From: Minisyncoccota bacterium
Lineage (GTDB): Bacteria; Patescibacteriota; Minisyncoccia; Phycocordibacterales; JACRKE01
Assembly (NCBI GenBank): GCA_041660505.1
Contig: JBAZWG010000001.1
Location: forward strand, 477,776-541,775
Reading direction: 5' to 3'
Length of the DNA stretch: 64,000 nt
Of the stretch, positions 1,310 through 54,452 are shown one piece after another. The notes under the pieces are model-generated. The model did no database searches, was not told the DNA's origin, and was given only the letters and a program-made list of their open reading frames with translations. The position numbers and the translations under genes are program-made. The stretch's first letter is position 1, and every line of letters starts with the position of its first letter.

Positions 1310-3691
1310 ATGAAAAAAGAAACAAAGACATTACTACTCCTAGATTCGCACGCGATCTTGCATCGGGCATATCACGCACTTCCGGACTTCCGCAGCGAGA
1401 ATGGGGAGCCGACCGGCGCGCTCTACGGCTTCGTCGCCTTCGTGCTTAAGGCCATCAAAGATCTAAAGCCGGACTATGTGGCCGCCTGCTTCGACTTGCC
1501 GGGGCCGACATTCAGGCACGAGGAATATAAAGAATACAAAGCAACACGAGCGAAGACAGAAGATGATTTGATATCACAGCTTAAAGTGGCAAGAGGCGTG
1601 GCCGAGGCGCTAGGTATACCGGTCTATGAACATCCCGGCTTCGAGGCGGACGATATGTTGGGCACGATCGTGAAGAAGGTCGCCGAGGAGAGACCTCTCT
1701 CTGGGGGACTCACCTCGGCGTGCAAGATTATTATTGCTTCGGGCGATATGGATACTTTGCAACTGGTGAAAGACGATGATGTGGTGGTCTATACTTTAAA
1801 AAAGGGATTGAACGATACAGTTATATATAATGAGAAGGCGGTAGAAGAAAGATTCGGCTTTAAGCCCAAGCTCTTACCGGATTATAAAGGCTTGCGCGGG
1901 GATGCTTCCGATAATATCATCGGCGTTAAGGGGATTGGCGAGAAGACGGCAGAAGAATTAATTCAGAAGTTTGGCACGATAGAAAATATAATGAAGAAGG
2001 CGAAGACGCATCACGACGAACTGCTCGAGGCGGGAATCAAAGAGCGGATTATCGGCCTGCTCAAGACCAACGAAGATGAGGCGTTATTCTCCAAGATGCT
2101 GGCGACAATCCGCGATGACGCGCCGATTGATTTTAAACTACCGGAGAAGACTTGGCGAGAGGGAGTTGATATTGAAAAGGTTGAGGCAATGTGCAAGCAG
2201 TATAGCTTCCGGACTTTGGCGGGGCGGATACGAGAGGCGGTTGCTGGAACAGGAGATAGGGTGAATTCCCCAACTCCCAACTCCCAACTCCCAACTCCTC
2301 CCAACTTTAAAAAGCTCCAGATAATGGCATGGCTCGTTGACTCCAGCGCGACCGATCCGGAAATTGAGAAAGTTCTGGAAGTTGCCGGTGTTAGTGACGT
2401 TGGTGAAGTCGAGGCCGTGCTCATGAAGAAAATTCATGAGGCCAAGCTCGAGAAAGTTTTAAACGATATTGAGTTGCCGCTTGTTCCAATCATTGACGCG
2501 GCGGAGAAGTGCGGCATCTTGGTGAGTAAAAAGAAACTCGCCGACTTGTCGGAAGAGTATCACATTCATACGGCGCGATTAGAGAAGCAGATTCATGATT
2601 TAGCTGGCAAGGAGTTTAACATCAGCTCGCCGAAACAGATGGGCGAGGTGCTCTTCGATACGCTCAAGCTTGAGGTGAAGGGGCTTAAGAAGACTGCCGG
2701 CGGCGCCCGCTCAACCAAGGAGTCAGAGCTAGACAAGCTCAAGGACCTGCACCCGATAATCAATAAAATTCTAGAATACAGAGAATACAAAAAGCTTCTC
2801 TCGACATATATAGACGCTATACCCAAACTCTTGGATAAAGAAGGCAGATTACATACGACACTCGTGCAGGCCGGCACCACGACAGGCAGAATGTCTTCGA
2901 ATAACCCGAATCTGCAAAACATCCCGATAAAGACCGAGCTTGGCCGGGCGATACGTGAGGCCTTCATTGCACCCAAAGGGACGGAACTTCTCGCGCTAGA
3001 TTATTCGCAGATAGAGTTGCGCGTAGCGGCAGCGCTATCGGGTGATGAGAAATTACTTAAGATATTCAAAGAAGGCGGGGATGTGCACGCCTCGGTGGCA
3101 TCTCTCGTCTTCGGCGTCCCGCCGGATAAAGTGGATCACGAGATGAGGCGCAAGGCCAAGGTCATCAACTTCGGCATCATCTACGGTATGGGCGTGAATG
3201 CGCTTAAGACCAACTTGGGCACTACGCGCGAAGAGGCCCAGCAATTCCATGACGCTTACTTCGAGCAGTTTAAACAGCTGGGTGAATATCTGGATAATAT
3301 TCTGGCCGAGACCAAACATACTAAATATACGACGACTCTCTATGGAAGGCGCCGATACTTCAAGAATATCAACTCCCGTATGCCCCAGCTCCGGGCGATG
3401 GAGGAGAGGATGGCCGGCAATGCACCGCTCCAAGGTACCGCCGCCGATATTATCAAGCTCGCGATGATCAAAGCGGAACACGAATTAAAGAAAGCACATT
3501 TACACGACGACGCGAAGCTTCTCCTGCAAGTTCATGATGAATTGATCTATGAAGTGAAAAAAGAAAAGGTAGAAGAAGTCGCGAAAGTTATTAAACAAGC
3601 GATGGAAACGGCGTCAGACATCAAATGCCCGATAATAGCCAACGTTTCCAAAGGCCCAAGCTGGGGCGAGATGAAGAAACTAAATATTTAG
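1310..3691 (+). CDS. polA: DNA polymerase I (5'-3' exonuclease plus polymerase domains)
   Basis: N-terminal FEN-like region (LLLDSHAILHRAYHALP), polymerase motif A (DYSQIELR), motif C (QVHDELIYEV) and motif B (RRKAKVINFGIIYG). Confidence 0.9.
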   Translation: MKKETKTLLLLDSHAILHRAYHALPDFRSENGEPTGALYGFVAFVLKAIKDLKPDYVAACFDLPGPTFRHEEYKEYKATRAKTEDDLISQLKVARGVAEALGIPVYEHPGFEADDMLGTIVKKVAEERPLSGGLTSACKIIIASGDMDTLQLVKDDDVVVYTLKKGLNDTVIYNEKAVEERFGFKPKLLPDYKGLRGDASDNIIGVKGIGEKTAEELIQKFGTIENIMKKAKTHHDELLEAGIKERIIGLLKTNEDEALFSKMLATIRDDAPIDFKLPEKTWREGVDIEKVEAMCKQYSFRTLAGRIREAVAGTGDRVNSPTPNSQLPTPPNFKKLQIMAWLVDSSATDPEIEKVLEVAGVSDVGEVEAVLMKKIHEAKLEKVLNDIELPLVPIIDAAEKCGILVSKKKLADLSEEYHIHTARLEKQIHDLAGKEFNISSPKQMGEVLFDTLKLEVKGLKKTAGGARSTKESELDKLKDLHPIINKILEYREYKKLLSTYIDAIPKLLDKEGRLHTTLVQAGTTTGRMSSNNPNLQNIPIKTELGRAIREAFIAPKGTELLALDYSQIELRVAAALSGDEKLLKIFKEGGDVHASVASLVFGVPPDKVDHEMRRKAKVINFGIIYGMGVNALKTNLGTTREEAQQFHDAYFEQFKQLGEYLDNILAETKHTKYTTTLYGRRRYFKNINSRMPQLRAMEERMAGNAPLQGTAADIIKLAMIKAEHELKKAHLHDDAKLLLQVHDELIYEVKKEKVEEVAKVIKQAMETASDIKCPIIANVSKGPSWGEMKKLNI
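1681..1720. repeat. Family B 40-bp palindromic element, copy 1, in-frame in polA (encodes AEERPLSGGLTSA)
   Basis: cgccgaggagagacctctctctgggggactcacctcggcg, with terminal inverted octamers cgccgagg/cctcggcg. Confidence 0.75.
2268..2305. repeat. Family A octamer array in the polA coding sequence (encodes SPTPNSQLPTPPN)
   Basis: tccccaactcccaactcccaactcccaactcctcccaac, in a linker between polA domains. Confidence 0.8.
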
Positions 3692-4141
3692 AATTCTGAA
3701 CAGGGCGATGCCGGTGGCCACGGACACATTGAGCGATTCTTTCTTTCCTTTCATCGGGATTTCTATAATGCTGTCACATTGGTCTAGGATGTCTTGCGTG
3801 ATGCCGAATCTCTCTTCGCCGATTATTAAAGCCGTTTTTCCTGACGATTTGAAGGTTTTATAGTCTACGGAATTCTCGGCTTGCTCAAGCGCGACGATAT
3901 TAAAACACTCCTCCCTAAGTTGCGCTATCGCGTAGGATAGGGAGGGGTGTTGTTCCCAAGAAACAGACTTCTCGGCGCCTAATGCCGTCTTCGTAATATC
4001 CTTTCGTATACTGCCGAAGCGGTCTAATGGGGATGGGGTGTAGCCGGTCAGGTATATTTTAGAAACCCCGGCAGCATCTGCGGTGCGGAATATCGCCCCG
4101 ACGTTATAAACACTGCGGATGTTATGAAGAATGAGGATCAT
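3680..4141 (-). CDS. SpoU/TrmH-family RNA 2'-O-methyltransferase
   Basis: MILILHNIRSVYNVGAIFRTADAAGV and a C-terminal SPOUT knot region (ESLNVSVATGIALFRI). The ORF track extends to a TTG at 4189; the ATG is at 4141. Confidence 0.8.
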   Translation of the reverse strand: MILILHNIRSVYNVGAIFRTADAAGVSKIYLTGYTPSPLDRFGSIRKDITKTALGAEKSVSWEQHPSLSYAIAQLREECFNIVALEQAENSVDYKTFKSSGKTALIIGEERFGITQDILDQCDSIIEIPMKGKKESLNVSVATGIALFRILNI

Positions 4142-4233
4142 GACAGAATTAAAGAATTTAGGAATTAGAGAATAATACAGTAAAATCAAGAATAGACAAG
4201 CGGGTCTAAAACTGGTATTATTTCGAAACTTCG

Positions 4234-4306
4234 CGCTCGTAGCTCAGTTGGTAGAGCAGCTCCCTTTTAAGGAGATGGTCGAGGGTTCGATTCCCCCCGA
4301 GCGCAT
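4234..4306 (+). tRNA. tRNA, probably Lys (anticodon TTT)
   Basis: Perfect 7-bp acceptor stem GCGCTCG/CGAGCGC, D-loop AGTTGGTAGAGC, T-loop GGTTCGATTCC, anticodon loop CTTTTAA. The exact reading at the line break 4260/4261 is uncertain, so the end coordinate may be off by one. Confidence 0.6.
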
Positions 4307-4309
4307 AAA

Positions 4310-54132: not shown

Positions 54133-54179
54133 GAATTCAATTGTCGAATTAATTAATAATTAGTAATTAGTAAAACAAC

Positions 54180-54410
54180 ATGGATATAGAATCAGTAAGA
54201 CTTTGGGCGACTTGTGCGGCAATCGCCTTCGGTACAATCGTGCCGGCAATCGCAATCGGTATGATCGGATCTAAGGGTGCAGAGGCTATCGGGCGCAACC
54301 CGGAGGCGGCATCCAAGATCCAGACAGCAATGATTTTGGCTATTGCGTTCGCAGAAGCTATTGCAATTTACGCGCTCGTTGTTGCGTTGATTATCAAATT
54401 CGTTAAGTAA
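54180..54410 (+). CDS. atpE: F0F1 ATP synthase subunit c
   Basis: [21 protein letters not shown] ... [16 protein letters not shown] is the hairpin with the conserved acidic residue. Confidence 0.9.
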
Positions 54411-54415
54411 GGGCG

Positions 54416-54452
54416 CCAAGGAGAGACCTCCCTCTGGAGGACTCACCTTAGC
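54416..54452. repeat. Family B palindromic element, copy 3, intergenic between atpE and atpF
   Basis: gccaaggagagacctccctctggaggactcaccttagc. Confidence 0.75.

Follow-up and report, generated by a model that had tools for sequence, protein, structure and literature searches.

The Hairpin Repeat and Its Copies in the Window

The 64,000-nucleotide stretch of contig JBAZWG010000001.1 analysed here (the window) comes from a metagenome-assembled genome (MAG) of Candidatus Paceibacterota, and it carries a short palindromic DNA element both within and between its genes. An earlier note on this DNA had pointed to three near-identical copies, at 1681-1720, 30017-30056 and 54416-54452. All three are present on inspection of the sequence, and a 27-mer from the element, allowed up to three mismatches, matches the window at these places only and not once in 100 shuffles. 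The first copy (1674..1727, plus strand, core 1686-1715) lies inside polA (1310..3691, plus strand), for which Pfam finds two 5'-3' exonuclease domains (PF02739 and PF01367) and the DNA_pol_A domain (PF00476) on P0001, a protein of identical sequence; this copy encodes AEERPLSGGLTSA. The second (30010..30063, plus strand, core 30022-30051) is translated as TEERPPSGGLSSV inside the gene for a PduO-type ATP:cob(I)alamin adenosyltransferase (29862..30452, plus strand; PF01923, Cob_adeno_trans, E=1e-41), hereafter PduO, and shares the reading phase of the polA copy, as had been claimed. The third (54407..54460, plus strand, core 54419-54448) is non-coding, and lies in the 51-nt spacer that runs from the stop codon of atpE (c subunit; 54180..54410, plus strand; PF00137) to the start codon of atpF (b subunit; 54462..54971, plus strand; PF00430). 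The names given earlier to these genes are thus borne out by Pfam. All three copies fold as long hairpins, with energies of -24.6 to -38.3 kcal/mol and z-scores of -3.4 to -7.9.

A covariance model (R1), built from 37 copies and run on the window, recovers the three known copies with 48-59 bits (47.9, 58.6 and 50.3 bits in order of position), together with two copies that the earlier note had missed and a hairpin at the end of atpF. One of the additional copies (58278..58342, minus strand, core 58290-58330; R1 score 24.3 bits, also found by pattern scan) has its arms in swapped order, AGGACTCACCT ... AGGAGAGACCT, and is translated as a 14-residue peptide inside atpG (57623..58585, plus strand; PF00231). 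The other (34855..34913, minus strand, core 34867-34901) is a variant in which the core is a perfect palindrome, AGGCGAGACCT ... AGGTCTCGCCT, and lies inside a thioredoxin-reductase-like gene (34538-35545; Pfam Pyr_redox_2 and Pyr_redox_3).

The same architecture is found in hairpins with different arms. One of these, AGGTTCAACCT ... AGGTTGAACCT at 54096..54129 (plus strand), forms the last 12 codons of atpB, which are followed by the stop codon (the open reading frame, ORF, ends at 54132); atpE accordingly has superfamily hairpins on both sides, at 54096-54129 and 54419-54448. Sister copies of the AGGTTCAACCT/AGGTTGAACCT hairpin lie at 8811-8844, 27205-27238 and 63831-63864. These hairpins are built on a doublet of AGG-N5-CCT, and have a conserved loop that is roughly TAAGCAYCAAAA. 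A similar loop is found in the hairpin at 54956-54989, in which the stems have changed to CGAAA/TTTCG and which supplies the last codons and the stop codon of atpF. What the earlier note had sorted into separate palindrome families therefore shares one architecture. Hairpins with AGG-N5-CCT twice number nine in the window by pattern scan (ten if the polA copy, which has GGG, is counted) as compared with 0.005 in shuffles, and 57 in 351 kb of DNA from the Candidate Phyla Radiation (CPR), where none is expected. A restriction-site-like origin of AGG-N5-CCT was considered and rejected, as the excess at a spacing of five (28 against 14 expected) is explained by the hairpins themselves.

Anatomy of the Element

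The constant part of the element is an 11-bp intrastrand duplex, in which AGGAGAGACCT is paired with AGGACTCACCT around two A·A mismatches. The core duplex joins 5'-AGG-A-GAG-A-CCT with 5'-AGG-A-CTC-A-CCT, with the mismatches 3 bp apart, and makes up one helical turn. Each strand runs from AGG to CCT, which makes the duplex pseudo-twofold symmetric and allows the loop to cap either end; both forms exist. The loop is CTCT in the window genome. Loops are common to copies within a lineage and differ between lineages, with lengths of 4-30 nt. Core and loop together measure 29-36 nt in most copies, with 42 and 54 nt in two copies that have longer loops, and the full hairpin is typically about 40-60 nt.

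Nearly every one of the 37 aligned copies has both A·A mismatches. They persist in copies whose three central pairs have been flipped (window 58290-58330, and 622-654 of L002; loci from other genomes are given L numbers), and also in a variant with AAG/CTT in place of GAG/CTC (L045 3725-3779). Repaired variants do exist: one mismatch is repaired in the window PduO copy (30022-30051), where A·A has become A-T and the outer stem reaches 10 bp, and in L008, while both are repaired in L002 1187-1244 and in window 34867-34901.

The element had been described as a fixed 40-mer with terminal inverted octamers. Instead, we find a conserved core of about 30 nt that is enclosed by a copy-specific outer stem. 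The outer stem averages 6.5 bp (range 0-16), and its sequence differs at nearly every copy. Its columns, which lay outside the search pattern, nevertheless pair in most of the 37 copies and use all four Watson-Crick pair types; at the pair 9-52, for instance, there are 11 AU, 11 CG, 9 UA and 5 GC, with one other combination. The covariation score of the outer stem is 0.352, compared with 0.118 in shuffles (none of 500 reaches the observed value) and no more than 0.128 once the partner columns have been slid. Copies that are identical over 34 nt of core and loop carry unrelated outer stems, which makes slow compensatory evolution unlikely and suggests that the stems derive from the local sequence at or after insertion. 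Where orthologous copies differ in the outer stem, the changes are again paired, in PduO (A-T to G-C, changing T/V to A/A) as well as in rnhB, the gene for RNase HII (C-G to A-T, changing P/G to T/V).

At 40 hairpin boundaries, direct repeats have a length of 0 (28 copies), 1 (nine) or 2 (three), as expected by chance, and there is hence no direct target-site duplication. Nor do the flanks outside the hairpin share a motif, or a 5' tetranucleotide of the GTAG type. When G·U pairs are used to ask which strand folds better, the polA copy prefers the plus strand and the atpE-atpF copy the minus strand, so that these two give no consistent strand preference. By alignment with orthologues, polA has gained a net length of about 24 nt and PduO one of about 33 nt. 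These values are near the 30 nt of core plus loop and below the 46-50 nt of the hairpin, which favours conversion of flanking sequence over an added duplication; being only two cases, with variable loops, they give a faint hint that the flanks may have been converted.

Distribution across Genomes

GTDB genomes were searched with the gapped pattern AGGAGAGACCTC N6-36 GGACTCNCCT, in which the exact core is required. This gave 37 loci, of which 34 are true hairpins, where by our own estimate about eight matches would be expected by chance; a single genome has up to seven exact-core copies. The hairpin loci are from MAGs labelled Paceibacterota, Vogelbacteria, Adlerbacteria, Parcubacteria or Saccharibacteria, with one, L025, labelled Gammaproteobacteria. 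Vogelbacteria and Adlerbacteria are separate candidate phyla within the Parcubacteria group in the NCBI taxonomy. Labels from outside the CPR are found on three of the 37 hits (L025, L032 and L038). L032 and L038 do not form the hairpin, whereas L025 does, and this locus may represent a mis-binned contig.

Scans with an exact 25-mer and 24-mer found no match in GTDB genomes or IMG/VR and one contig in the JGI metagenomes, which indicates that the exact subfamily with the CTCT loop is rare. The gapped pattern matched two IMG/VR contigs of the same sequence; they have no paired stem, and we judged the match to be due to chance. At the protein level, a profile of the translated element run against 5.8 billion proteins, which is not a census, returned two candidates and a single match, the PduO fragment of L006. 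No Rfam family matches the element: only tRNAs score in the window at the gathering threshold, and seven loci scanned with a permissive threshold gave only chance matches to hairpin-like microRNA models. In L018, from a MAG labelled Saccharibacteria, positions of about 560-700 hold tandem repeats of about 53 nt, each with the right half of the core, CCCGAGGACTCACCTCCGTCTCC.

Reading Frames and Host Genes

Coding sequence is a common location for the element. Among 35 GTDB copies, 18 are inside confirmed genes, 11 are clearly intergenic and six are uncertain, and three of four copies in the window are inside confirmed genes. The hosts in GTDB genomes are PyrD (dihydroorotate dehydrogenase), three class I tRNA synthetases of the Val/Ile/Leu type, CysRS, MurB, a Mur ligase, NusA, trigger factor (tig), MnmA, UvrC, RNase HII, PolA and a PfkB-type kinase; all were confirmed by Pfam and PDB searches except for the kinase, which was recognized by eye only. 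For RNase HII and UvrC, the stretches that align with PDB sequences lie outside the element. Relative to the gene, coding copies are found in either orientation, with about eight and nine independent loci. Each orientation is read in two phases, giving four unrelated series of peptides (EERP..GGLTS, RGETSGSLEDSPR, EVSPQGARGLSS and RGESSSEPEVSPR), and the element adds about 8-13 residues to its host protein. The third phase is never seen among coding copies. In the reverse orientation this phase starts with AGG TGA, and in the forward orientation the commonest variant has ACT TGA while some variants are open; stop codons thus account in part for its absence. What had been suggested to be selection for in-frame insertion is better understood as a filter on survival.

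Intergenic copies are found 10-60 nt after stop codons. Some of them lie between convergent genes and are accompanied by A and T runs; among other genomes, such runs are seen beside the copies in L017, L026, L034 and L045. The atpE-atpF copy of the window is without a T run, and coding copies cannot be terminators. We also rejected an intron-like reading in which the element is excised from RNA, since the copies in verified genes keep the frame open, the sole exception being an in-frame TAA in the PduO gene of L006.

The element is absent from most orthologues, as was found with the alignment of PolA and PduO that the earlier note had proposed. With the 60 closest PolA sequences aligned, the insert is absent from the relatives at 76%, 76% and 68% identity and from nearly all of those at about 59%; relative to them, PolA of the window has a net gain of eight residues. 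Alignment with Pol I of Taq and Mycobacterium places the insert in a nine-residue gap between KKAEKE and GYEV, in agreement with its assignment to the KKAEKEG-YEV loop of Taq Pol I, which belongs to the 5' nuclease domain. PduO relatives at 60-68% identity are likewise without the insert, the net gain being about 11 residues. In an AlphaFold model of PduO (mean predicted local distance difference test score 90.6), the peptide of the element, T53-V65, makes up the loop that joins helices 29-52 and 64-85, where the confidence dips locally; the surface loop proposed for it is consistent with this model.

Among closer relatives, the same sites show a variety of states. L006 and L008 hold the element at the same PduO site as the window, although the PduO genes of the three element-bearing lineages are only 72-76% identical in DNA. 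The suggestion of an active or recently active element is not supported by this, nor by any transposase, direct target duplication or polymorphism within populations, none of which was seen. In L008 (79% protein identity) both arms are kept and a 16-nt loop replaces CTCT. In L006 (7374-8006; the same sequence is found in L001 and L007), the PduO gene contains the element, an in-frame TAA and an unrelated 45-nt palindrome, GGGCTCGACACCGAGTGTCTGGGGGTCCGACACTCGGTGTCT, which includes the outer-stem words CACCGAG/CTCGGTG, after which the gene resumes in the same frame. This arrangement is present in two independent assemblies, and could be a split gene, a pseudogene or a case of readthrough; contig L001 ends directly after the second palindrome. 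In L009 (312-422), what occupies the PduO loop is an unrelated palindrome, CTGCCTGCCGGCGAGGCAG, with direct repeats of 15 nt, GGAACAAGGAACAAG, on either side. The loop is a hot spot that gathers different small inserts and palindromes. In PolA of L002 (74% identity), the two arms are present in swapped order at the site used in the window. Distant lineages, too, have the same loop occupied, in different phases, both in PolA (window, L002 and L012/L014) and in UvrC (L016 and L044). Judging from these relatives, the sites are old and unstable.

Other features of such genes and their surroundings were noticed as well. A pyrimidine-rich repeat, TCCCAACTCCCAACTCC..., is present in the window at 926-958, 2267-2299, 21110-21142 and 59966-59997 (minus strand), and one of its copies lies within the inter-domain linker of polA, where it is translated as SPTPNSQLPTPP; in relatives, this linker holds other repeat-derived inserts (L002 1187-1244, and L014). 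The translations of L016 (UvrC), L014 (PolA), L023 (LeuRS) and L028 (Mur ligase) contain palindrome-like segments (...TSSEPEV..., ...RSTSSGQ... and ...TSGSPEV...), and several repeat families appear to feed in-frame inserts into CPR proteins. Directly downstream of PduO in the window, the ORF at 30530-31045 has a weak match to the HNH_3 endonuclease family (E=2e-4, below the cut-off), and ORFs of similar size follow the PduO gene in L006 and L008.

In two of the three copies first reported, a shared frame gives nearly identical peptides, and it could be asked whether these copies are ordinary conserved protein sequence, or else the product of a segmental duplication or a chance likeness. We consider all three to be excluded. 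The third of them lies outside coding sequence, the DNA of the element is read in four combinations of frame and orientation in other genes, and orthologues are found without it; where distant taxa have the same loop occupied, the reading frame of the element differs. A duplication confined to three copies with similar flanks is not what we see, as there are many more copies and their flanks are unrelated beyond the hairpin. For chance, the expectation from shuffles is zero.

That the element is present in either orientation, within coding as well as non-coding DNA, and is conserved across related genomes is also what would be expected of a self-recognition signal for DNA uptake in natural transformation, like the DNA uptake sequences (DUS) and uptake signal sequences (USS). 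CPR bacteria are thought to rely on DNA uptake. DUS and USS occur as inverted pairs after genes and also in frame within genome-maintenance genes, and genes for DNA maintenance are among the hosts here, with polA in three to four lineages, uvrC in two and rnhB in two. However, DUS and USS have a density of about one per kb, as compared with only about one copy per 15-20 kb for the element in the window. Moreover, an intrastrand hairpin with a variable loop of 4-30 nt and asymmetric mismatches is unsuited to a receptor for double-stranded DNA. An uptake signal is therefore an improbable explanation.

Proposed Copying, Flank Conversion and Selection

That the element occurs in both orientations and in several frames argues for an entity at the level of DNA, and its dispersal to unrelated loci, together with its absence from most orthologues, points to copying. 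The earlier reading of the element as one of a family of dispersed palindromic repeats, translated in frame within surface loops, is supported by the present analysis. Going further, we think it somewhat probable that the 40-mer is a local subfamily of a widespread family of non-autonomous, selfish hairpins in the Parcubacteria group, similar to the repetitive extragenic palindromic (REP) sequences and the Rickettsia palindromic elements (RPEs). The family is previously undescribed in Rfam and in the literature searched, where no paper describes such a small repeat family for CPR bacteria.

From the patterns above we infer mobility, an enzyme and a step of flank conversion, which could be combined as follows. 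A core of about 30-34 nt would be copied at the DNA level to new sites, probably as a single-stranded hairpin, either by an enzyme like the HUH-type REP-associated tyrosine transposases (RAYTs) or by template switching in replication or repair. The strong hairpin would then drive a templated "quasipalindrome correction" of the adjoining bases. Such correction would result in outer stems that are copy-specific and yet paired, and in paired substitutions between orthologues. Finally, selection would purge harmful copies. Survivors would be those located downstream of stop codons or between cistrons, where they may act as terminators or as hairpins at mRNA ends, and those in permissive surface loops in stop-free reading phases.

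A more specific version of this proposal is that the core of about 30 nt seeds new sites and then converts, or inverts and duplicates, the adjoining bases into an outer stem, by a process undescribed for bacterial repeats, with the core duplex and its two A·A mismatches being recognized whichever end bears the loop. The outcome, if this is true, would be flank repeats that are inverted, not direct. We put this forward tentatively, as a possibility that is open to considerable doubt.

Several observations weigh against a selfish family. We found no transposase, no direct target-site duplication and no filled/empty polymorphism between close strains, and mobility is thus deduced from distribution only. 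The only transposase candidate in the window, the ORF at 9866-10582, was rejected, as it looks like a helix-turn-helix (HTH) plus LAGLIDADG-type protein. Copy number is modest, being in the tens per genome as judged from exact-core matches, and not in the hundreds. The core is also far better conserved than its surroundings: the PduO element is identical at 37 of 39 positions between the window and L006, whereas the genes are 72% identical. Across candidate phyla, the exact core recurs in the window genome and in a Vogelbacteria genome, the PolA proteins of which are only 55% identical. Decay would be expected of an inert selfish insert located in a variable loop; the conservation therefore points to selection, gene conversion or repeated re-insertion. 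Likewise, the filling of the same loops in distant lineages requires either a site preference or very old insertions followed by many losses.

The main rival, and a serious one, is a cis-acting hairpin that is selected by the host. Here, a conserved Parcubacteria protein would recognize the AGG-N5-CCT duplex with its A·A mismatches, in single-stranded DNA, a cruciform or RNA, and the hairpin would be kept for termination, protection of mRNA 3' ends, subunit ratios within operons or marking of DNA, with copying being secondary. Besides the conservation of the core relative to neighbouring coding sequence and across candidate phyla, such a role would fit with the covariation of the stems while the A·A mismatches stay, even with the central pairs flipped or changed to AAG/CTT. 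It would also fit with the position of intergenic copies 10-60 nt past stop codons, and with the atp genes of the window, where atpE lies between two hairpins and the stop codons of atpB and atpF are in or beside hairpins. However, half or more of the copies are in essential coding sequence, in both orientations, which makes a sequence-specific role in mRNA unlikely there. Most orthologues do well without the element, variants with repaired mismatches persist (window 30022-30051 and 34867-34901; L002 1187-1244), and Rfam has no matching family. In addition, the conservation of the core is in part a matter of ascertainment, as the search pattern demanded an exact core. On balance we regard selection by the host as rather unlikely, though it has to be taken seriously.

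Other Features of the Window

The window also contains G+C-rich palindromes of the form CCCCTCTCCGAAGGAGAGGGG, in nearby inverted pairs (20174-20249, 44194-44226 and 44599-44631), one of which is scored weakly by the covariance model (24 bits). At 13090-19209 there is an ORF of 2039 residues with several internal direct repeats 306-615 nt apart, over which the GC skew is locally reversed; it probably encodes a large repetitive surface protein.

The ORF at 9866-10582 (minus strand, 239 residues; region 9770-10647) has a weak N-terminal HTH of the transposase type as well as a LAGLIDADG-like motif, LYWAEGAKG. On one side of it is a tRNA gene (9776-9847) and on the other an inverted, partial copy of the 3' half of this tRNA (10619-10647), and the region may be an insertion of the homing-endonuclease type beside the tRNA.

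Significance

CPR bacteria (Patescibacteria) have tiny genomes with many unexplained oddities of sequence. As this family shows, hairpin repeats that are selfish or exapted are present even in genomes of about 0.7 Mb, and are translated as part of proteins such as DNA polymerase I, UvrC, the gamma subunit of ATP synthase and tRNA synthetases. This accounts for some of the lineage-specific insertions in CPR proteins, and for some assembly breaks and apparently split genes, such as the PduO gene of L006 and the end of contig L001. A simple DNA pattern and a covariance model can now be used to mask or trace such inserts. The copy-specific, complementary outer stems may offer a natural system for the study of hairpin-templated mutation, or of a new insertion chemistry, and the deep conservation of the mismatched 11-bp duplex predicts a dedicated binding protein. 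If the seeding of sites by a core and the conversion of its flanks prove general, hairpins would be a major unrecognized source of lineage-specific loop insertions in essential CPR proteins.

Comparison with Known Systems

Palindromic repeats with coding potential in Methanocaldococcus jannaschii, as well as the small dispersed repeats of cyanobacteria, are reportedly very short, located within genes and able to nest. They differ from the element in sequence and host, and we mention them as a lead only.

[quoted passage not shown] MITEs occasionally give rise to in-frame fusions, according to a review (PMC10969869). MITEs are characterized by fixed terminal inverted repeats, direct target-site duplications and descent from an insertion sequence (IS). 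The termini of the element, by contrast, vary from copy to copy and are without direct duplications, no parent IS was seen, and its size is at or below the lower limit for MITEs.

REP sequences and REPINs are imperfect palindromes of about 35-40 nt, in which conserved mismatches give polarity. They are multi-copy and often found just downstream of genes, where they can stabilize mRNA; they have no direct target duplications and are believed to travel in the form of single-stranded hairpins. By definition they are extragenic, and they are mobilized by RAYT (Y1/HUH) transposases. The element resembles them in being an imperfect hairpin of 20-40 nt with conserved mismatches. It differs in that at least half of its copies are in coding sequence, in lacking a GTAG-like tetranucleotide 5' of the hairpin, and in a copy number that is apparently in the tens rather than the hundreds. 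No Y1 transposase (RAYT) was found among the roughly 25 ORFs of the window that were scanned; the 8-kb loci from other genomes were not scanned exhaustively.

In quasipalindrome template switching, which is known from the Ripley model and from hot spots in thyA and lacZ of E. coli, an imperfect hairpin corrects its own arms, and paired changes arise without selection. This process would explain why outer stems are copy-specific and why substitutions between orthologues are paired. However, it acts locally only, and leaves unexplained both the presence of an identical 30-nt core at many loci and the A·A mismatches, which are mostly uncorrected.

RPEs, to which the element had been likened from the outset, are about 150 bp long and fall into ten families, with 44 integrations in R. 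conorii, nearly half of which can be fused translationally to ORFs of the genome, according to the passages on RPEs in the same review (PMC10969869). The element is three to four times smaller, with a core of 30-34 nt, or 40-60 nt with the outer stem, as compared with the 100-150 bp or so of an RPE. As its host is a CPR lineage of the Parcubacteria group, and not an alphaproteobacterium, sequence homology to the RPE families is not expected. Its use of both orientations with two phases each, its copy-specific outer stem and a core that extends across candidate phyla further set it apart from RPEs, as far as they are described in those passages. In its behaviour, on the other hand, the analogy with RPEs stands. 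Like them, the element is palindromic and is inserted in frame, without destroying the protein, in unrelated housekeeping genes (polA, PduO and atpG in the window, and others elsewhere), while other copies are intergenic, and only stop-free frames survive.

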